Part shown: positions 15,578 through 31,191 of the stretch, piece by piece
How positions within the stretch are numbered: the stretch's first letter is position 1
How the letters are laid out: every line of letters begins with the position of its first letter
From: Lophium mytilinum
Taxonomy: Eukaryota
Reading direction: 5' to 3'
Assembly: GCA_010093605.1 (NCBI GenBank)
Contig: MU004186.1
Coordinates: 1,468,616-1,532,615, forward strand
Length of the DNA stretch: 64,000 nucleotides
Translations under genes and position numbers: made by a program
The notes under the pieces: model-generated
Told to the model about the DNA's origin: nothing
Seen by the model: the letters and a program-made list of their open reading frames with translations, nothing else
The model's database searches: none

Positions 15578-17317
15578 ATGAGGCCAGGTTTCAGCACTGC
15601 TGCGCTGCTGAGTGCAGCTGCAGGCTCTCTTGCATCCGACCTTGCCAACGTAACGGCGATCAGGGATTGTTCCTTTTGCGTAACCCTCCCTTCGCTGTTC
15701 CAAAAAGCAGTTGAAACATTACTGACTGGCCCCAACAGTGTGGTGCACTTGCGGATGCGGGTCTCGCCAGCCGGATCACCTACCCTGGGTCGACCATCTA
15801 CGAGCAAAGAGTAGATTCGTACTGGTCTCTGACAGCCCAATTGACCCCGTGGTGCATCATTCAGCCACACAATGCCAAGGAGGTGTCCACCGCCGTGAAG
15901 GCTCTGGTCAAGGCCAACAAGAAAGAGGAATGCCTGTTCGCTGTCCGAAGTGGAGGCCATACGACGTGGCCTGGAGCAGCGAACATCGAGAATGGAATCA
16001 CCATTGATCTGGGGTTGATGAACTCGACGACTTACATCGCGAGCAACAATACCGCACAAGTCCTTCCTGGCTCGCGCTGGAAGGGTGTGTATCAGACCCT
16101 CGATGCTCTCGGGATTGCCGCAGCTGGTGGCCGTGCATCAACTGTCGGAGTTGCAGGGCTCGCCTTGGGTGGTGGCAACTCGTTCTATGCTGCTCGCAAA
16201 GGCTTAGTGTGTGACAACATTGCCCAATATGAAGTAGGACCTGTATCAGCTTGTATTAGCCATTGCTAATCACCTCTCACAGGTTGTTCTAGCCAGTGGC
16301 GAGATCATCTACGCCAACAACAAGACCAACACCGATCTTTTCCGCGCTCTCAAGGGTGGTACTGGTAACTTCGGTATCGTGACCCGCCTAGACTTGGACA
16401 CCTTCGAAGGTGAAGATCTCTGGGGTGGTGTCGTCACCTACCCCAACTCTACTACCGACGCCCAGATCCAAGCATTTGTGAACTTCGGCAACAACATTGA
16501 AAATGACCAGTACGGGTCTGCTATTGTCATTTGGCAATACACCACCCAGAACGCAGCAACTATCCTTATCAATGCATACGAGTACACAAAGCCTGTAGCA
16601 TGGCCTGCTGCCTTCGACGAGTTCAAGGCCATCCCCGACCGCACCTCCGACTCTATGCGCTTTACAAACATGACTGATCTTACCGTTGAGCTCGAACAAG
16701 CCGCTGGTTATCGGTAAGTCAATCACGTAATGATATCACTCCTTCACTAACATTCCCTCCCAGCGACACCTTTGTCACCCTCACCTTTGTCAACGACAAG
16801 CGCGTCGTTAAGAAAGCCGTCGACCTCCACAACACGGTTGTCGAAAAGGTCAAGGCCCACAAGGCCACCGGGAACTGGACTGTGCAAGACATGGTGCAGC
16901 CCATCCCAACCATCTTCACCAAGCACTCCGTTGAGAAGGGCGGGAACATGCTTGGATTGGACCGCTTTAGTGACAATCTCGTTCGTAAGTGCTTAGTTCT
17001 TTCTTCCCCTTTTCGGTTTCTCCGTTCTAAACGTATTTACAGTCTTCCAAACCTACCTTGCGTGGGAGGGCGCCGAGCAGGACGACTTCTTCCAGGGCTT
17101 GGGTGACTGGTACATCGCGCAGCTCAGCGCGTATGCCAAGAGCATTGGCAAGAGCAACCCCTACATCTACCTCGACTACGCATACGCGACACAGAAGCCG
17201 CTTGAGAACTACGGTGCTGTAAACATCGCGAAGCTGAAGGCTGCGTCGAAGAAGTATGATCCTACGGGTGTGTTCCAGAAGCTCGTGCCGGGTGGATTCA
17301 AGATCTCGAAGGTGTAG
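15578..17317 (+). CDS. Secreted FAD-linked oxidoreductase (FAD_binding_4 / berberine-bridge-like)
   Basis: Signal peptide MRPGFSTAALLSAAAGSLA. FAVRSGGH flavinylation motif, GVAGLALGGG, DLFRALKGGTGNFGIVT, YLDYA...KYDPTGVFQKLVPGGFKI. Four introns. TAG 17315-17317. Confidence 0.93.
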
Positions 17318-17908
17318 TGAGATGATGATTGCTTTGGGCGTTGGAGGTGAGCTGATGGAGGTTCAAGGTTTATGAGGGCGCTGAGAGGGTTGAGACGAAG
17401 GCTGGTCATGTCGGGGTTAGAGCGGTGCCTCAGCATACTGAGTTGTAGATGTTTGAGAAGACGAAAAGAAAAAGAAAAGGTACATGCTTGTATACTTTTA
17501 TCTACTAGTAGATCTTTCACGGTCCTTAACTTCTAATAAGTAATCTACCCTATTCGCTCGTTTCACTTTCTCAATCTTCTCCATGCAATTGCGCTTAGAA
17601 GACATGTGATAAGAGTCTTACAGGGCTCGGGTCTTCAAGCCTATCTAGCACATGGCTCTTGGTAAACTAGATGAATCTCTTCTTGGCTAGTACCTCATTT
17701 ATATCCGAAGCGCATGATGAATGGAACTTATAGGAAAGAGAAATGCACAGCCCCAACCAAATGAGAAAGGTAATTGAGAACCACACCGAACGACAGATCC
17801 TTCAAAGCTCCAAAAACCTCCACCAAACCTTCCCACAACCCCGCCTCAGATCTAGGAAATCCCACGCCATCTACGCCAGAACATATGAAACCCTTCCATC
17901 AATCTAGT

Positions 17909-18160
17909 CTAGCTAGCCACCGTCTCTTTCCCATCCTCTTCGCGCTCCCTTTTGCACTTATCAATCCCGCAGAATCCGTAAGCTTTCTCCGGTTCCTCCG
18001 TGCCGAGTCTTGGATTTAGATCTTTGCAGGTTGATTCAAGCCATCCCTGGCCCTTGCAAGGTTTACAATCCGTACCTTGGCTAATAACGATGGTTTTACA
18101 ACCGCAGAGGGTCCGTTCTCGGTAGAAGCCGACGCAGTCTTTTGCGCGTTTGATGGCCAT
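17909..18160 (-). CDS. Cys-rich microprotein, paralog 1 (83 aa)
   Basis: caccATG start. Pattern C-x9-C-x8-QG-x2-C-x2-C...C...C-x4-C matches the two neighbouring ORFs. Putative 5'UTR intron (GTACCT..TACTAAC..AAG). TATAAG at ~18478-18473. Confidence 0.65.
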   Translation of the reverse strand: MAIKRAKDCVGFYRERTLCGCKTIVISQGTDCKPCKGQGWLESTCKDLNPRLGTEEPEKAYGFCGIDKCKREREEDGKETVAS

Positions 18161-18631
18161 GGTGGTCGGTGGATGATGGGTGCAGAGGGTGGCTTTGAGG
18201 ATTGATTGTGAGGTGTGTCTGCGGCCTAATGCGGATTTCTTGGCTTTAAGAGTAGGGTTAGTATTTGTACTAACCCGAGGGTGATCTCGAGGTACCTGAG
18301 AAAATGCAAGTTGCGGTATACTTGCTCCTGGAAATTCTAAGAAGTTTTAGTGATGCGGATGATATCGGTACCTGGAATCAAGGGAAGCTTTCGCGTATGT
18401 TTATTGCACGCTGGAAGATCCGGTACGAAAGTGATGGAGCAGAAAGGAATCTGTTCGTGGAAGTTTGAGTCTCTTATACCCTTAGGTCGAAAGGTCTTGA
18501 CTCCTTATGACTCTATTGCGAAGCTTTGACGACTTAACACGTATCAGATATACTTTAGGAGTCAAGATCAGGAAAGACGAGTGTGAGCAAGTCTTCTGAC
18601 TAGGTGTTTGAGCCCTGATAAACTGGCTTCC

Positions 18632-18760
18632 GAAATCAACGCACGATCCTTTGTTTCAAGATGGCTCATCAATACACTCACGAAGCAGCAAAGAGTCAGA
18701 GGGCTCAGCATGGGCGGTATAAGAGGATTTTTTTTCTTCTAAACTCTCTTTCCCTCCAAT
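18632..18760 (+). promoter_or_regulatory. Promoter block of microprotein paralog 2, duplicated in inverted orientation at ~20335-20463
   Basis: 18632-18680 matches the reverse complement of 20415-20463 at 45/49 nt by hand count. Similarity continues through AAGAGTCAGAG..GCTC.GCATGG..GGTATA and TTTTCTTCTA.ACTCTCTTTTCC. Confidence 0.8.
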
Positions 18761-19091
18761 ATTACACAGTATCATCAATACGAGCTTCCAAATCCTATAT
18801 CGAATTCTCTCAACAGCTATATTAGCTTGAACAGCACTGCATCAGCCTACTCTCGAAAGCCTTCGACTTCTTGACTGTCCTTTAGTATTACTACGCCGTT
18901 TTTTGGATCTGGCTCATTGGAGAGGTGTGAAATTTATACTCAAAGGTAATACTTCGTGCATTGCAACTACATCAAAAGTAAACGGACGTTAACATCCACT
19001 AGTTCTCGAGATTCCACCACGGCTCGCAAACCTAGAACCCACACCTCATACCGTAACACCCTGACGTATTCCTCTCTCTACACCCGCCAAA

Positions 19092-19325
19092 ATGGCCGAG
19101 GACTGCTATACGTTGATAACATATTATGAAAGGTGTAACAAAGTCCGCTATGACATCAGGAAGGGGGGCAAATGCACCTTCTGCCCGACTCAGAAAAAGG
19201 GAGCTTGCGACATCATGAGCATTTACGATCGTGGAAGAGAAGAGAAGGAGACAAATCGCTCAGATAAGTGCAAGGACTCCAATTGCGCGGAATGCAAAGG
19301 GAAGGATGAGCCCTATCAGTTCTGA
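19092..19325 (+). CDS. Cys-rich microprotein, paralog 2 (77 aa)
   Basis: caaaATG start. C-x9-C-x8-KG-x2-C-x2-C...C...C-x4-C-x2-CKG. Putative 5'UTR intron starting GTAATA at ~18946. TATAAG at ~18718. Confidence 0.7.
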   Translation: MAEDCYTLITYYERCNKVRYDIRKGGKCTFCPTQKKGACDIMSIYDRGREEKETNRSDKCKDSNCAECKGKDEPYQF

Positions 19326-19877
19326 TATGGAACGCCCGAATGTCTTATTTGTTTGGGGGGGTTTATAGCTGTGCAGGACTGGTAGTTTCATGTGGTCGAT
19401 GGATCAGGGTTGTATTTTGGCGTGTTTCTGGAAATTTGGAGATTTCTTGCTTTCTGCTTTTTGCATGTTCTTATTTACTGAGCGTCCTTGTTTTTAGATC
19501 TTCTTGTATCTTAAACCTTCCTTGTTCTTTGAATCTTCTTGGTATTTAGATCTCTTTATTTCATCCGTGGTTTCAATTTTAAGCATGCGGAGTTGAACCG
19601 CGTAATACACCTTCGCTGTCAACGAATTGCATTGGCGCATCGCAAAACTAGTCTAACACTACTCCGCAAGCCGTGCATAAGCCATACCGAATTCAACACT
19701 TGATAGAAATCTAAATACACATCGAAAAAAAGAAGAATTGAAAGAAGAGCCCAAGAAACACATTAAACAAAACTCGATCCACTAGAAACCCAAACCCGCA
19801 AACACTCCACATCTTTGAATACTTAACTCCACCACACAGTAGAGTTTCTGAAGCATTGCTGTCGCATTCTCATGCGC

Positions 19878-20120
19878 CTATGTCTTCTTAACCCCTTTGC
19901 AAACTGGGCAACCTGAATGGCCGCAGTACCCCTTGATTTTCCTCACATACCCCTCCGATCTCCCCGTTCTCTCACAACTCCAGGAATCGCAGTCTACAAT
20001 TTGTCCATTAAAGGTAGGCTCCTTACAATAAGAGCAGTCGTCTCCCTTCACGATGACCATCAGGTCGTGGAAACACTTGTCATATGATGACTTGTATGCG
20101 AAGTAGTTCGGTTGGCCCAT
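19878..20120 (-). CDS. Cys-rich microprotein, paralog 3 (80 aa)
   Basis: ATG 20120, MGQPNYFAYKSSYDKC-x8-KG-x2-C-x2-C...C...C-x4-C-x2-CKG. Upstream region is homologous to that of paralog 2. Confidence 0.7.
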   Translation of the reverse strand: MGQPNYFAYKSSYDKCFHDLMVIVKGDDCSYCKEPTFNGQIVDCDSWSCERTGRSEGYVRKIKGYCGHSGCPVCKGVKKT

Positions 20121-20334
20121 TTCAACGGTGTAGATGAGTAGGTCGGCTTGAGATTGGCTTATGCGGCGTGGATGCCAACTTTCCAAGCCGTGGTGAGATC
20201 TTTAGGGGATGTTAATGCCCTTTTAGTTCTTATGCGGTTGCAAGACACGAGATATTACCTTCGAGTATGAGATTTACACTTCTCTACCGAACTGGGTTCA
20301 GGGAAATGGTTGGGTAATATGTGTGTGATGGTGT

Positions 20335-20463
20335 AGGAAAAGAGAGTCTAGAAGAAAACTCAAACCTTCATATACCATCCATGCCGAGCACTCTGACTCT
20401 TCGCCGCCTCCTCATGAGTCTATTGATGAGCCATCATGAAACAAAGCATCGTGCGTTGGTTTC
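20335..20463 (-). promoter_or_regulatory. Promoter block of microprotein paralog 3 (inverted copy of 18632-18760)
   Basis: See partner feature. Contains GAGTCA (20399-20394) about 17 nt upstream of a TATA-like GGTATATGAA. Confidence 0.8.
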
Positions 20464-21063
20464 AGGGGCGAGCATTGAGCAACTTGAGGCTTGGACTGTG
20501 ACTGGGCTGTTGAAATCAGACTACCCTTTGACTAAAAAGCTGGCGGCCAGCGGGGCCACCCCTCACACTGGTGTCAAGCGAGCAAATCTAAAGCGCGCGC
20601 AGTGTGATTCACGTGCTGCGGATATCGTTGACTTGATTCGTAGCGTCTTGCTCAACGATATTTACACTCGGTTGGCACTGTTTGGGGTCCCCCCGTGGTC
20701 TTTCAAAATCATAGACGTGACGTCAATATCGAGACCGTACGAATCTGGCTACCTATTTCCCGCCGGGCAACTTGACTGCTGAGGTCCCCCTGACAGTGTC
20801 ATCGAGAGAGCAAGAGCGGCGCACGAACAGTGAGATATCCGAGCGCGCAACCACATGACCACACACTTCGCAAGATTAGCCTCACCGAGAACACGAACCC
20901 CTTTGCGGCACGAACATGGCACATGTAGTCACAAAAGTAACGCCCTGTCGTTTCAGAACTACAACTATACGTCAGCATTAAGCCTGACACTCATATACGA
21001 GTCTTGACTCCATCATACGAAGCCGACTCTATATTCAACACAACCAACTACGCACAGGGCACC

Positions 21064-23649
21064 TCAGCGTCGCCATTCATCGTACTTATCGCGATGTTCC
21101 CTCCGCCTCGCTTCTTCCCACTCAGCCATCTCCGCATCTTGGCGCTCTTGTGCTTGGATTTCCCCCCAGCTGATACGAGGCGGACGGCCTCGAGGGGGTG
21201 GAGGTGGTGGACCTGGCGGAGGAGGCGGAGCTCGGCCTTTTCCGTAAGGACGCGAAGCAGGATATGGAGATGGCTTTCGCGAGTCCGTGTTCCTGTATGC
21301 TGGAGGAGCTGGAGGCGGTGGAGGCGGTGGGCCTGATGGAGGAGGAGGCGGAGCTCGACTTCTTCTGTAAGGCTGCGAAGAAGGATATTGCGACAGCTTT
21401 TCCGAGGCTACCTTCTTTTGCGGTGGATACTCTGGGGGAGAAAGTTGGTGCTTCTCTGCCTGCTGCGTGGGTGGCGGTCGATTCCTAGAGTAGCAGTGCT
21501 GAAGATGGCGTTCTAGCGCATTTTCGCTCCACAGCTCCTGTCCACACTTTTGGCAGCAGATGGATGGCTTTGGGGCGGGATGAGCGGTCTGGCGCGTACT
21601 GTCTTCTAACCGGTTGTCGTGCAGCGCTGAAGTGGTGTCAAGCCCGAACTGAGGTTTAGCCGGTGGAGTATAGACTACTCGCGTGAGCGATTGTGTATTC
21701 AGAGACGGGAGTTTGGTTTGCTCACGCTTCACTGGTCTCTTCTCCGCTTGTTCGCGTTTTGCTTGTTTCTTCCGGGCCAGCTGTAGTTCAGCTGCTTCCT
21801 TTTGGGCTTGCTGTCGCTCGGCCTCTTTCTCCTGAGCTTGCTGTCGCTCAGCCTCTTTCCTCAGGGCTTGCTGCCGTTCTGCCTCTTCTTTCTGAGCTTG
21901 CTGCTTGCTCGCTAAATCCTTTAAGGCTTGCTGTCGTTCAGCTTCTTCCTTTTGAGATTTCTCTTTCGCCGCCTGCTCTCTCGCTGCCTCGCGGACCTTC
22001 TCCGCTTCCATCTCAGCCGTCTTCTCCGCGTCTTCCTTTTCGAGCTTGGCCAAACGAGCCAAACGCTCCTCCTCTAATTTCGCCGCAAGTGCAACCTTTG
22101 GGTTCCGCGCTTGCTTTTTCGCCCAATACTCTTCATTCTCCTTTTTCTCCAGGACCTTCCTCGCCTTGACTTTTTCTTCCCATTCCCTAGCCGCTGGCGT
22201 TCGTTCGCTTGGTGAAGACGCAGCAATGGGAGTCGCAAAGGGGTCATATATGGACTCAGCCGCCTTGAATCGGAGCAGTTGTGCAACACTATCAGAGATC
22301 CCGGTGAGTTTTCTCATGGCTTTGTTTCCCCAGGGAGGTCTCGCTAGCCTCGTCGTCGGCTTGGTTAGTAGCGAGCACGAGGTAAGGATTTCGGAGCCTT
22401 CCACCACCTCGCCCTCCTCCAACTCCGATGACTCCTCCCTCCCGGACTCCTCCAAGTGCTCCGCCTCTCTGAGAGCCCATATCGGCTTCGGCGCGTGCCT
22501 TGCGTTCTTCTTTCTTGGAGCGTCCTGTCGCAGTTCGGTGATCTGCTGCTGCTCCAGGAGGTAAGCTTCGATTCTCGTTGTATCGTTGGGCAAGGGTGAA
22601 GCCGAAGGGCTGTTGGGAATCTCCGCCAGATCTTGGCTGCTGGATTCCAGAGCGAGAATTGGTGAACTGCTGTTGTTCTTAGAGATCGAATTAGTTGGTT
22701 TCGGTTGCTCGTCTTCGCCGTCGAAGCTCCACACATCGAAAATACACTTACTCACACCGCGATCGTCGGGCTCGCGCTTTATACCCTGGTGCTCTGAGCC
22801 TGATCTGTAGGCTGAGTCTGATGAGACGGAGCGGGGTTGTGTGCCATTGAAACCAGGATTAGAATTGGAGGAAGGGGAGCTGCCAAGCGATTGATCCAAA
22901 GAGGCGATTGTCATACGTTGAGTACCGGGGGCTGGCATGTGCGCAACATAGTTCTCCGACGTAAGCTCTATTGTGGGCTGCGAGCGCGACTCAGATTGTG
23001 TATCTTGGTGGAAGTTTGGCACTGAAGGGCGAACACTCCCGCGTCTAAGCGTAGAGCGTCGAGCTGGGGACGAGCTCCCTCTAGTCTGTAAAGACCGAGG
23101 CGTGAGCGCGTGAGGGATAGAGACACCTGACTTTGAGACCGATTGAGCGTCAGGAGACTTGGCGTTGGTCTGTCCATTCAATTGGCGTTGCAGCTGCTCG
23201 TTCTCTAGACGCGCCTTGTCGAGCTCCTGCTGTAGATACGAGTTTCGCTGCTTCAGCTCGTGGATCAAGCCCTCCGCTGAGATCCGCTGGGCAATCTCCT
23301 GGTCTAGCTCAGATTGGAGAGATAAAGCTCGAGCTTGAAATTCTTTTCGTCGAGTGCGCTCTTCGTAGGCGACGCTATAGCAGGCGTTCATTCCGCGCCG
23401 AATATCCTCTACGCCATTGGCAAGGCGGCCCACAAGAGGAAGGTCATCCTCTGTGCCAGTAAAGCACCATTGCGCCTCCATATGTTGGTCTATTGACGGT
23501 GTAGTGTCGTGCGGTGACATGGACATTGTCGATCCAGAAGGAGCAGTTACCGCGGACGCAATGAGTGGCGACTGCGGCAAAGTCGCGGAGGGCTTATCAG
23601 GAGGTTCAGCATCACTACCCGGGCTCGTGCCCGCCATGGGTGTATCCAT
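21064..23649 (-). CDS. Large low-complexity protein: coiled coils, KEEAERQQA repeats, C2HC/C2H2-type zinc finger, poly-Pro tail
   Basis: 861-aa uninterrupted ORF with CQKCGQELWSENALERHLQHC, repeated (K)EAERQQA units, and a duplicated S.YP.S.PY...RAPPPPP.GPPPPPP unit. Confidence 0.75.
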   Translation of the reverse strand: MDTPMAGTSPGSDAEPPDKPSATLPQSPLIASAVTAPSGSTMSMSPHDTTPSIDQHMEAQWCFTGTEDDLPLVGRLANGVEDIRRGMNACYSVAYEERTRRKEFQARALSLQSELDQEIAQRISAEGLIHELKQRNSYLQQELDKARLENEQLQRQLNGQTNAKSPDAQSVSKSGVSIPHALTPRSLQTRGSSSPARRSTLRRGSVRPSVPNFHQDTQSESRSQPTIELTSENYVAHMPAPGTQRMTIASLDQSLGSSPSSNSNPGFNGTQPRSVSSDSAYRSGSEHQGIKREPDDRGVSKCIFDVWSFDGEDEQPKPTNSISKNNSSSPILALESSSQDLAEIPNSPSASPLPNDTTRIEAYLLEQQQITELRQDAPRKKNARHAPKPIWALREAEHLEESGREESSELEEGEVVEGSEILTSCSLLTKPTTRLARPPWGNKAMRKLTGISDSVAQLLRFKAAESIYDPFATPIAASSPSERTPAAREWEEKVKARKVLEKKENEEYWAKKQARNPKVALAAKLEEERLARLAKLEKEDAEKTAEMEAEKVREAAREQAAKEKSQKEEAERQQALKDLASKQQAQKEEAERQQALRKEAERQQAQEKEAERQQAQKEAAELQLARKKQAKREQAEKRPVKREQTKLPSLNTQSLTRVVYTPPAKPQFGLDTTSALHDNRLEDSTRQTAHPAPKPSICCQKCGQELWSENALERHLQHCYSRNRPPPTQQAEKHQLSPPEYPPQKKVASEKLSQYPSSQPYRRSRAPPPPPSGPPPPPPPAPPAYRNTDSRKPSPYPASRPYGKGRAPPPPPGPPPPPPRGRPPRISWGEIQAQERQDAEMAEWEEARRREHRDKYDEWRR

Positions 23650-27911: not shown

Positions 27912-30056
27912 TCAGACCTTCTCTCCATCCTTCTCCGCCATTTCTTCCGCCTCGGTCTTCTTCCCACCCGTAACACCAGCCATCGATCCAAGTTTCGAAA
28001 ACGCTCCGCTGCTGATTTTCAGCTTCTCTGTAGCCCAGCTCATGATACTGTCCTCATTTTTCTTCTCGACCTCTTTCTCCATGTCTTTAGCCTCTTCATC
28101 TGCATCTTTTCCTTTCTCTTTCTGGGCTTTCTCTTCAGCTTCCTTCTTTTGCTCTTCCTCAACCTTCTTCAACTCGGTCTCTTCACGAGCAACCTCTTCA
28201 AGATCGACATCTTCAAATCCGATCTTCTTCAGGATAGTACCAGCCAGCCATCTGTACCGTGTGTGACCATTGACAAGATCACTCACATCAACATTTTGAA
28301 TGCCTTTTATGTCTTCCACCTTCTGCAGCCCAGCGACACCGTATTGAATGCTGCTGGTCCGGTAAAGGAAAGCGAGAATGTAGTCGTTGGTCGAATAGAC
28401 GTTGACGACCCTTCCAGAAACCACACTCCTAATCTTTCGCCACTCGTTCGAGGTCGACGGAAGAGGCCCGCCCATGATGACTACACTCTCGACCAATCCA
28501 AACGCCTTCCTCTCTGCCAATGTCTGCAGACAGGTGTAGATCACTCGCGCACCGAGCGAGTAGCCTATCAGGGTAACCGGTCTCTCACCCTGCACCTTAT
28601 TGATCAGTGCATCCGCGAGTACCTCGCCGGCCTTGTCACCTCTCGCCTTCGCGACGCTAAACGGGTTATCGATGATCCTCGAGACCTTCAGCAAACCTAG
28701 CGGCCACAGTCCCGCGCTCAGAGCCGCAAATACGGTGCGTTTGATGATCTCGTGCTTTGCATAGCTCCATGCCGCGGACTGGACCATAGTGGTGAGCGAG
28801 TTGCCGAGTTTCAGTAGTGCCTCTAGCTCCCAACGCAATGCGAAGCCTTCGATTGAGGGACCGATGATGCGCCACGGCACCACGACTTCCTCTTTATCAG
28901 TCAGCCACCCAGATATCCCGATAGCGACGCGTAACCGGCGGAATTCCTTCTCAATCTTGCGTGGACGGTGGAAGTTTCGGATAGGCACGAAGCCAAAGTC
29001 GTCGACCTCCTTCGCATATTCGTCCATCATCTTCCCGGTCATACGGGCCCCATACGCTCCAAATAGCCCACCCACAATCACCGTACTGCTCGCTAGCGTA
29101 CCCAAATAGCCCGCAGCAGCCGTAGCACCCAGTCCTAAGCCACCCATAACAGACCCGACACCAGCGGCGAGCAGGGGCGCAGCCAAACCCCCCGTAACAC
29201 CAATAAGTGCAGCACCCGCCACACTCGCTAGCCCAACTTTCCACTTTCGACTGCTGTGATTCTCCTCTGCCTTCTTCTTCGTCTCTTTATCTGCATTCAT
29301 CTGCTGTTTCACCGCCTCCAGCAACCCCTTCGCCACATTCCTCTCATCCTCCGCCAACACTTCAATCGACAAACCCAGACTACTCGTCAAATGCAACAGC
29401 AAGATCCTCGAATGCGCAGAATACTGCTCCAAACTCAGCAACAAAAGCACGAGGCTGTGCAACACCAGCGCCCTCTTCGGCTCCTCCAACTGCCTCAATT
29501 CCGTTGGGATGGGCGGGTATATCTCATGTAACGCTTCCGCAACCCCCTCATCCTGTTTCTGCGGCGTCGCACTCAACCGCTTCGTCCCCATATCCGGCGA
29601 CGCAGCACGCGTGGGATGCTTCCCCTGCTCCCGTGCCTCAGCCTTCGAGTTCACGACTTCGCCGACGCGTTGCAGCACCGTGTCCCGCCATGCCTCGAAG
29701 TACTCTAGCGCTTTTTGCTTCAGTTCGACTGTTTCGGGTTGCGCGAGCTCTTCCTCCAGCTCTTTCTTCCTGTCTGCTGCGTCTTGTCGTAGTTTGTCTT
29801 CTTTCTCGACGTCGACTTCGGCGAGGTTGGTGGGCGCGGAGAGGAACGCGTCGCCGGTTCTGGGCGGATCGGGGCTGGAGTCCGGGGTCGAGTCGTAGGC
29901 GGAGACGAGGGTCGTGCGCATAGAGGCCGTGCTGGAGGCGATGAGGAGGGTGAGGTCGGAGCGTTGCTCAGGTGTCAGGATTGACGTGAGAGATTGCTCG
30001 TCTTCTTGGGGAGGGGGCTGGTCGTGGTCGTGGGACCATGGGAGGTGGGAGAGCAT
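27912..30056 (-). CDS. DUF726 alpha/beta-hydrolase-like membrane protein (Mil1/TMCO4 family)
   Basis: 714-aa intronless ORF with KVGLASVAGAALIGVTGGLAAPL, IDNPFSVA, GERPVTLIGYSLGARVI and VVSGRVVNVYSTNDYILAFLYR. Confidence 0.9.
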   Translation of the reverse strand: MLSHLPWSHDHDQPPPQEDEQSLTSILTPEQRSDLTLLIASSTASMRTTLVSAYDSTPDSSPDPPRTGDAFLSAPTNLAEVDVEKEDKLRQDAADRKKELEEELAQPETVELKQKALEYFEAWRDTVLQRVGEVVNSKAEAREQGKHPTRAASPDMGTKRLSATPQKQDEGVAEALHEIYPPIPTELRQLEEPKRALVLHSLVLLLLSLEQYSAHSRILLLHLTSSLGLSIEVLAEDERNVAKGLLEAVKQQMNADKETKKKAEENHSSRKWKVGLASVAGAALIGVTGGLAAPLLAAGVGSVMGGLGLGATAAAGYLGTLASSTVIVGGLFGAYGARMTGKMMDEYAKEVDDFGFVPIRNFHRPRKIEKEFRRLRVAIGISGWLTDKEEVVVPWRIIGPSIEGFALRWELEALLKLGNSLTTMVQSAAWSYAKHEIIKRTVFAALSAGLWPLGLLKVSRIIDNPFSVAKARGDKAGEVLADALINKVQGERPVTLIGYSLGARVIYTCLQTLAERKAFGLVESVVIMGGPLPSTSNEWRKIRSVVSGRVVNVYSTNDYILAFLYRTSSIQYGVAGLQKVEDIKGIQNVDVSDLVNGHTRYRWLAGTILKKIGFEDVDLEEVAREETELKKVEEEQKKEAEEKAQKEKGKDADEEAKDMEKEVEKKNEDSIMSWATEKLKISSGAFSKLGSMAGVTGGKKTEAEEMAEKDGEKV

Positions 30057-31191
30057 GATTGATGTGGGGGGCGCTGGGGCCCGGGGAGTGAGCTCAATTG
30101 AAGCGTAATGGTCGAAAAGGGAGATTTAGGACCTAAGGACAGGGCATGTAGCTTTATTGAAGGTTGATCGAAGCAAGAACTGCAAGTGTGGCTTGCTTCT
30201 TGTGGCAGTTTGGAGACGTCGTGGATTGAGTGTTGTATCATGACGTCAGCAGCACGTGAAAACGAGAAAGCTAAAAGGCTCCTCGAGGGTTTAGGATCAT
30301 CACAAGGGTATATAATTAATAAGATAATGGAGGAGAATGTTTAGTGTCATTGCTAAATGCTTTGAAAAACTTAGGCTTGTTAGTGATGATCGGGCCCTTA
30401 CAGGTCACATGAGCATCTCTGGGTATTGATTTTCGTTTGATTAGTAACGGAGTGTCCCGATTGAATTGTGTTGTGTCCGTAACAACTCACGTCGTGAGTC
30501 GATCGGGACACTCCACTAAGTTGATAGGGACACTCACTGACCTTCAATACCCTTTCCGACATAGAACAGATAATACTAGGTCAACGATAACTGTTCCACT
30601 CTTCAATCCCATATCCATCCCTTTTCTATCTCATAACTAACCTATACTTATCCCATTCCTATTTCATTACCATAATAGAAACACAATCACAGGACTACCA
30701 CAGCACCTACCCTCTCAAGGTACCCTCCATCCATCGAGAACCGGGAAGCATCTTGTGATTTATTTTTCAACTGCATGCTCATTATCGTTTCCAACGACTC
30801 CGTGAAATATTGATCATTGTCCCAGTCTTTTTTGAAATGACGAGCTGGTAATTTGACTTCAGTCCGGACGAATGGACGTGCCTTCACAGTTTCTCGAATA
30901 ATGGGCCCAATAGTAAATGTCAAGGAGGTGTTTGGTGTCTGAGAAGTGATGGTCAATGTCCCTCAACGGGGAGAGTGCTGGCACCAACAACCCATAAAAG
31001 GCAATTCAAATGCCGTTTTTTCGGCATTCCGTGCCCGGTAGCCTACACTCACGTTATCCCACGGCTATCTATGGGCATTCTACGCCATCATATTACTAAG
31101 AGCGAGTTGTTCGCCCGGCTCTTTCCCCGCATTTCCTTCATCCCTATCTTTGTCCCCATCTTTCTTCCTTCTTCCTTCTTCTTCAACGGTA

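Follow-up and report, generated by a model that had tools for sequence, protein, structure and literature searches.

How can two neighbouring paralogues be almost identical in promoter and leader intron while they encode two very different proteins? The question is raised by a locus of Lophium mytilinum (Eukaryota) that lies in a stretch of 64,000 nucleotides (NCBI GenBank assembly GCA_010093605.1, contig MU004186.1, positions 1,468,616 to 1,532,615 of the forward strand), which was analysed as a whole and is called here the window; all positions below are counted from its first letter. Two short cysteine-rich genes, A and B, stand there tail to tail as convergent paralogues (19092-19325 on the + strand and 19878-20120 on the - strand), and divergence is discordant along this single gene pair, with a sharp boundary: the Kimura two-parameter distance (K2P) is 0.21-0.40 in the 5' region and at least 0.80 in the coding sequence (CDS), where the synonymous distance (dS) is 1.18. 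The answer that we favour, and in which we place about half of our belief, is that the 5' module is younger than the coding regions, by a later ectopic gene conversion or a partial re-duplication confined to the 5' end. The parts of the two genes to which this applies are the following.

18623-18768, + strand: homology block 1 of gene A, with an upstream element, a GAGTCA box at 18693, the TATA sequence GGTATAAGAGG at about 18716-18726 and a pyrimidine tract.
18769-18890, + strand: stretch of the leader exon 1 present in gene A only, opposite an alignment gap of about 117 nt in B, after which some 30 nt align poorly.
18946-19002, + strand: predicted leader intron of gene A, in the 5' untranslated region (UTR), GTAATA...TTAACAT...CTAG, with an alternative acceptor at 19010 (CGAG).
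19092-19325, + strand: CDS of gene A, 77 aa, 8 Cys at residues 5, 15, 28, 31, 39, 60, 65 and 68.
19326-19877, no strand: convergent 3' regions of A and B, 40.6% G+C (GC), with T-rich short direct repeats; the two sides are not significantly similar.
19878-20120, - strand: CDS of gene B, 80 aa, 8 Cys at residues 16, 29, 32, 44, 49, 66, 71 and 74.
20200-20258, - strand: predicted leader intron of gene B, 59 nt, GTAATA...TTAACAT...AAAG.
20322-20472, - strand: homology block 1 of gene B, with the upstream element, a GAGTCA box at 20394-20399, the TATA sequence GGTATATGA and the pyrimidine tract.

Segment identities were computed from a MAFFT alignment, with coordinates of A set against B. The promoter core (18623-18768 versus 20322-20472) is identical at 120 of 146 nt (82.2%), and block 2 (18890-19050), which runs from the end of exon 1 through the intron into exon 2, at 109 of 155 (70.3%). 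Within block 2 the leader introns agree at 44 of 58 aligned nt (75.9%). The remainder of the exon 2 leader agrees at 51/81 (63%). Compared with shuffled sequences, the similarity reaches z = 48 for the promoter and z = 13 for the intron. The first-pass annotation of this DNA, made from the letters alone, had described an inverted duplication whose non-coding 5' part is far more conserved than the coding part; this pattern is borne out (82% and 76% versus 47% nucleotide identity). Its count of 45/49 nt between 18632-18680 and the reverse complement of 20415-20463 is exact on recounting, and the intron-region strings that it quoted could all be located, on the + strand at 18936, 18989 and 19015 and as reverse complements at 20237-20268, 20207 and 20186. 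A repeat search delimited five collinear inverted arm pairs (I1, 82 nt, 77%; I2, 61 nt, 85%; I3, 49 nt, 80%; I4, 37 nt, 84%; I5, 42 nt, 74%), and when the window was compared with itself, blastn matched 142 nt at 81% (E 1e-32) and 131 nt at 72% (E 9e-15) and detected no further copy in the 64 kb. The outer edge of the similarity is abrupt, at about 18623/20472, where identity climbs over 40 alignment columns from 47% to 92%. For the DNA outside this edge, 218 of 500 shuffles align as well as the actual sequence. The same holds for 411 of 500 shuffles when 18769-18919 is locally aligned with 20285-20321 of B. The intron similarity spans the whole length of the intron, beyond the splice signals, and the best-kept stretch (the 45/49 nt) sits upstream of the TATA box.

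The coding regions present another picture. Codon-aligned, the two CDS have 104 of 222 nt (46.8%) in common, and the proteins share 20 of 74 residues; the first-pass annotation had put the latter, by hand alignment, at "roughly a quarter". As DNA their local alignment is equalled by 146 of 500 shuffles. The proteins themselves are related (BLASTP, 21/64 residues, E 2e-4; none of 1000 shuffles scores as well by Smith-Waterman), with 7 of the 8 Cys aligned, and only the Cys framework and a few Gly and Lys are left in common. By the Nei-Gojobori method over 74 codons, the proportion of synonymous differences (pS) is 0.60, dS 1.18 and the nonsynonymous distance (dN) 0.88, for a dN/dS of 0.75; synonymous sites are saturated, and the third codon positions differ in 43 of 74 codons. 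Along the pair, K2P thus runs from 0.21 in the promoter through 0.30 in the intron and 0.40 in block 2 to at least 0.80 in the CDS.

The kind of mismatch also changes along the pair. The promoter core holds 17 transitions and 9 transversions, and transitions account for 50 of the 72 mismatches in the 5' blocks as a whole (P 4e-7 against the share of 0.4 expected at saturation). In the CDS, 43 of 115 mismatches are transitions, which differs from the 5' blocks (Fisher P 2e-5). Judged from these spectra, the 5' mismatches are unsaturated and the coding mismatches look saturated. In addition, the 26 promoter mismatches are not patchier than random (P 0.65 and 0.51), in a test that has low power at n = 26. 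It is because the 5' mismatches are rich in transitions and evenly spread, next to a saturated CDS, that we read the 5' module as the younger part. In this scenario A and B would be old tail-to-tail paralogues whose coding regions split long ago, and their 5' modules (upstream element, GAGTCA box, TATA, end of exon 1, leader intron of 57-65 nt and start of exon 2) would share a far more recent ancestor than the CDS. Either the inverted copies would have undergone ectopic conversion, or one of the two 5' ends would have been replaced in a partial re-duplication, and ordinary purifying selection on the core promoter would contribute too. The outcome would be two very different proteins under nearly the same regulatory cassette. 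Conversion or such a re-duplication appears the most likely cause from the segment identities, the mismatch spectra, the abrupt outer edge and the lack of similarity in 3' flanks and coding DNA, and a co-regulation of A and B is plausible.

The pattern had first been explained by diversifying selection of the kind known in toxin and immune gene families. A fairly recent inverted duplication of the whole gene would have been followed by accelerated, diversifying evolution of the CDS, while the 5' part went on at a neutral or constrained rate. The Cys framework that is kept (7/8 aligned) while the rest differs is in favour of this explanation, as are a dN/dS not far below 1 and the precedent of the snake venom PLA2 genes (PMC7285919). 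Moreover, where A and B have the same residue, the third codon positions agree in 13 of 19 cases, compared with 7/18 and 9/18 in the comparisons with a third gene of the locus, gene C, described below. However, the coding DNA is at the level of unrelated sequence by the shuffling given above, pS is 0.60, and just 37% of the coding mismatches are transitions. The CDS would have had to evolve about 3-4 times as fast as neutral DNA in every codon position, the third ones with their 43/74 mismatches among them. That synonymous sites are saturated while the neighbouring introns are unsaturated is not accounted for by selection on amino acids. A recent whole-gene copy should also carry similar 3' flanks, but those of A and B have no significant similarity (33 of 500 shuffles are as good), which disfavours such a duplication. 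Finally, nothing in the proteins (signal peptide, relatives or domain) hints at a role as toxin or in immunity. We consider this explanation distinctly unlikely. The diversifying-selection cause proposed by the first-pass annotation is thus unsupported, given proteins without signal peptide and a dN/dS of 0.75 that is uninformative at a saturated dS of about 1.18. A saturated dS together with promoter identity that stems from a conversion tract, which that annotation had itself named as speaking against its proposal, is largely what the data look like. Its further suggestion that the paralogues are kept co-expressed while they diversify survives in part: the near-identical regulatory cassettes make co-regulation plausible, and the selective cause given for the diversification is unsupported.

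The 3' flanks have features of their own. The sole similarity between them is a 14-nt motif, GTATTTAGATYTCT, found about 160-220 nt past the stop codon in each of the two genes. On the side of A there are also T-rich short direct repeats resembling TTTAGATCTTCTTG; repeats and motif together occupy 19485-19562 and 19705-19718.

What long-term constraint alone leaves of a promoter in this family can be seen at gene C, which is head to head (divergent) with gene A and has the following parts.

17909-18160, - strand: gene C, an open reading frame (ORF) of 83 aa with 8 Cys, probable third and more distant member of the family.
18244-18295, - strand: candidate leader intron of gene C, 52 nt, GTACCT...TACTAAC...AAG, predicted from the sequence.
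18472-18513, - strand: core promoter of gene C, two GAGTCA boxes and then the TATA sequence GGTATAAGA.

The protein of C weakly resembles that of B (BLASTP E 0.008; 13 of 1000 shuffles as good by Smith-Waterman) and is not detectably similar to that of A by the same two comparisons (E 0.29; 391/1000). It has in common with the family the Cys pattern CxxC..C..CxxxxC, besides a similar size, and C is probably a distant third member of the A/B family; no more members were found in the window, where the next-best ORF in six frames reached E 0.7. The leader of C, from TATA box to ATG, is 318 nt long and holds no ATG (P 0.045). Its promoter matches that of B over 18 nt (16/18), and its likeness to A and B is limited to short motifs of 10-18 nt, including GAGTCA..GGTATAAGA. 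The pattern GAGTCA-N10-40-GGTATAWGA has three matches in the 64 kb, one before each of A, B and C in sense orientation, with 0.01 expected and none of 100 shuffles reaching three; as A and B supplied the pattern, the only independent match is that of C. Between C and A (18440-18730), four GAGTCA/TGACTC hexamers occur in 291 nt where 0.15 are expected, the densest cluster in the 64 kb by a count made post hoc, and each of these GAGTCA boxes is in sense toward the nearer gene. TGACTC is the core of the sites of Gcn4/CpcA-type and AP-1-type basic leucine zipper (bZIP) regulators. The full palindrome TGASTCA is absent from these promoters.

Gene C bears on a further explanation, by which the genes were duplicated long ago and purifying selection for shared regulation and splicing has kept the entire 5' module near constant, while the CDS drifted or adapted. 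Indeed, the islands of similarity coincide with the promoter core and with the unit of splice donor, intron and acceptor, the promoter is better kept than the intron block (26/146 versus 46/155 mismatches, Fisher P 0.02), the 45/49 stretch lies upstream of TATA, where activator sites would sit, and the GAGTCA-TATA unit is retained in C. However, an old split with partial constraint should leave the free sites saturated, with mostly transversions and a patchy distribution, and the 5' blocks of A and B are unlike that: their mismatches are transition-rich (50/72) and evenly spread, and their variable sites are unsaturated. Intron positions outside the splice signals are alike as well. C, for its part, keeps only motifs of 10-18 nt, and such motif islands are what long-term constraint on promoters leaves in this family. 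Purifying selection as the only cause seems to us unlikely.

Several points weigh against a younger 5' module. Only two sequences, those of A and B, were compared. The similarity consists of two islands that match functional units, with an indel and some 30 poorly aligned nt between them, and this arrangement fits two selected modules as well as it fits one tract with a later indel. Given that the promoter is kept significantly better than block 2, selection certainly contributes. Moreover, the 13/19 agreement of third positions in same-residue codons is intermediate and does not discriminate, and 26 mismatches make a weak test of patchiness.

Two other origins of the similarity were weighed and are close to excluded on the sequence data. 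By the first, the shared 5' block would be a mobile or repeated element, such as one resembling a miniature inverted-repeat transposable element (MITE) or a solo terminal repeat, inserted before two unrelated ORFs. Inverted arms with a sharp outer edge would fit such an element, and a short dispersed repeat is found nearby, at 20506-20586. However, the proteins are related (0/1000 shuffles as good), the similarity continues through the leader into the intron, and neither a further copy in the window nor a target-site duplication flanking the block was found. A search of the contigs of the two DNA runs that contain the stretch, and from which it may derive, detected no second copy of 17800-20505 at 88% identity or more, copies below 88% being outside the scope of that search. 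This origin is very improbable. As for the dispersed repeat itself, several other DNA contigs and one contig of run X3 match it over 25-38 nt with 2-5 differences and then diverge, and no second copy is present in the 64-kb window; it may be a leftover end of a mobile element, some 80 nt beyond the promoter block of gene B.

By the second, repeat-induced point mutation (RIP) would have unevenly degraded a duplicated segment, as might be thought from the transition-rich 5' mismatches and from the local GC content (45-47%, versus 51% over the window). The RIP indices do not follow: TpA/ApT is 0.80 versus 0.73 in the window, and (CpA+TpG)/(ApC+GpT) is 1.21-1.25 versus 1.21. The C-to-T differences have no CpA bias (9 of 50 contexts), and the coding mismatches are mostly transversions. 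We find this origin hardly credible.

The gene models of A and B have the following basis. An in-frame stop codon lies upstream of the start codon by 30 nt in gene A and 84 nt in gene B, and the leader introns were read from splice signals in the sequence, which are ordinary fungal ones. From TATA box to ATG, the leader of gene A is 373 nt long without any ATG (P 0.012); that of gene B is 255 nt long, and its one ATG is within the TATA box. Since the leaders are free of ATG, the genes would lack a hidden first coding exon and any signal peptide encoded by one. A 168-nt contig of run X3, a run only guessed to be of RNA, covers 20035-20202 of gene B with 0 differences. It stops at 20202, 3 nt into the predicted intron, and these 3 nt (AAG) are also the last 3 nt of exon 1. 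The contig would hence end where spliced and genomic sequence part, a weak hint that is compatible with splicing. The X3 reads gave no cover on A, on C or on the rest of B, and no splice joint was reported from them.

Other readings of the 5' blocks were considered and dropped. One of them is a conserved upstream ORF in block 1, since its ATG at 18710 precedes the TATA box and the frame of A hits a stop in B. A 133-aa ORF that begins with ATG (20381-20782, + strand) starts within the promoter block of gene B and heads outward; it is probably not a gene. A search of Rfam gave a single sub-threshold match (17.3 bits versus 36) and neither an intron-borne snoRNA nor any other known RNA.

What, then, are the proteins? 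All three are charged and have 8 Cys; A and B each carry two CxxC, and C carries one CxxC plus CGC and CxxxxC. Their N-termini (MAEDCYTLITYYERCNK, MGQPNYFAYKSSYDKC and MAIKRAKDCVGFYRER) are polar and charged; a hydrophobic run is missing from their first 15 residues, and hydrophobic 9-mers (Kyte-Doolittle (KD) hydropathy about 1.9) occur only internally, near residue 20. By the hydropathy of these N-termini, none of A, B and C has an N-terminal signal peptide. Like the zinc-ribbon and DnaJ-type CxxCxGxG modules, A and B have two CxxC pairs, which lie about 35-40 residues from each other in a protein of about 80 aa; an exact CxxCxGxG (CKPCKGQG) occurs once in C, and CxxCKG closes both A and B. 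Unlike the DnaJ-type domain PF00684 with its four CxxCxGxG repeats, there is a single exact motif, in C only, and Pfam lists neither a zinc-ribbon family nor DnaJ_CXXCXGXG for these proteins at E up to 10. As a working guess, to which we would give about one chance in three from the sequences, A, B and C might be small intracellular zinc-binding proteins of a zinc-ribbon-like kind, with the CxxC pairs as the binders.

Searches for relatives were negative. A word-indexed protein search with B gave no candidate, and an exact look-up of A, B and C found them absent from the protein collection searched. A HMMER profile of A+B+C against 1.84 billion representatives gave three matches at E of 0.001 or less, which are 825, 1816 and 2841 aa long and were hit in 3-7 repeated stretches; the 825-aa match was inspected as a possible relative and dropped as a repetitive protein. 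In Pfam nothing exceeded the cut-offs (best, Amastin, E 0.052, 13.9 bits versus a cut-off of 27.2), and the best match of a profile search of the PDB had E 0.057. Two ESM Atlas searches gave 0.85 at best, within the range of shuffled proteins, and the clusters with zinc-ribbon families came nearest at 0.76-0.77, which is the range of chance hits. AlphaFold2 models were unusable (predicted local distance difference test (pLDDT) 37.4 for B with a 3-row alignment and 36.9 for A alone). A scan of metagenomes with protein A yielded 112 pattern matches, none of them confirmed, and a scan with a 23-nt promoter pattern yielded none. The family is apparently a lineage-restricted one of non-secreted 8-Cys proteins. 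The missing relatives are no strong evidence of novelty, since the lineage is sparsely sampled and such short genes are easily left unannotated.

The window is DNA of a filamentous ascomycete, and how well its Dothideomycete lineage is sampled can be judged from a neighbouring gene. The DUF726 ORF at 27915-30125 (- strand), a single ORF, matches a protein named for Mytilinidion resinicola at 95% identity along 97% of its length, and the following best matches reach only 75% and 70%; from this gap the lineage is thinly sampled. Besides DUF726, the domains on the ORFs around the locus are Zn_clus, Fungal_trans, DUF3425, 2EXR, DUF7730, Fung_rhodopsin and PrpF. Gene B adjoins an unbroken ORF of 861 aa (21064-23649, - strand) without Pfam domain, in which Pro, Glu, Lys and Gln abound; it contains EAERQQA repeats that look like coiled coil, and its tail is proline-rich. 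About 1.6 kb from gene C, the FAD_binding_4 ORF at 15715-16266 (+ strand) is a fragment of a multi-exon oxidase gene. A tRNA search of the window found none.

Similar combinations of alike and diverged parts have been described in other families. In tandem rice nsLTP genes, homogenisation of the proximal promoter by gene conversion has been proposed (PMC3325081). Our locus resembles rice clade I.1 of that report in having clustered paralogues for small 8-Cys proteins with alike promoters, which are ascribed there to a conversion that preserves expression motifs. It differs in that the rice genes undergo concerted evolution as a whole, whereas here only the 5' module is alike, beside CDS without detectable DNA similarity. 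Furthermore, in contrast to the tandem rice genes, A and B are inverted and convergent, lack a signal peptide and would have been converted only by our reading of their alignment.

A second comparison comes from venom. In snake venom PLA2 genes, the UTRs (98% and 89%) and the introns are far more conserved than the coding regions (67%), and the three codon positions change similarly, according to PMC7285919. A and B are like the PLA2 genes of Trimeresurus and other venom toxins of that text in having UTR and intron more alike than the CDS, changes at all codon positions and a kept Cys framework. Unlike them, A and B are apparently not secreted: the toxins are secreted, with a conserved signal-peptide region, and their nonsynonymous rate (KA) is at or above the synonymous rate (KS) at unsaturated distances, whereas A and B have no signal peptide, a saturated dS, a dN/dS of 0.75 and no toxin-like domain. 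The KRTAP1 repeats offer a third comparison (bioRxiv 10.1101/282418). As in our pair, the pattern switches sharply near the start codon in a small family, there by short-tract conversion and selection; but they are the mirror image, as their coding parts are homogenised while the flanks diverge, and here the 5' flank and leader are alike while the CDS diverge.

On present evidence, the locus is a further example of a known pattern, in which regulatory DNA is kept or made alike between diverged paralogues, and an evolutionary curiosity rather than a new kind of system. It flags three short Cys-rich genes, the exact sequences of which are absent from the public protein sets in the collection searched. 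It is also a compact case of regulatory and coding DNA with different histories, in which about 400 nt of promoter, leader and intron that are 70-82% alike stand beside CDS that can no longer be aligned as DNA. A bolder idea, which we regard as improbable, is that the cassette of promoter and leader intron is an expression module actively maintained by recurrent conversion, selection or both in a fast-diversifying, lineage-specific family of leaderless Cys-rich proteins. If this were true, a fungus would have, for non-secreted proteins, an equivalent of the constant non-coding and hypervariable coding DNA by which venom and immune genes are built, and crossing-over between the inverted modules would flip the segment with both CDS while leaving expression unchanged. 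Should orthologues confirm a conversion restricted to the 5' end, the locus would be useful for the study of how recombination may keep paralogues co-regulated while their proteins diverge.

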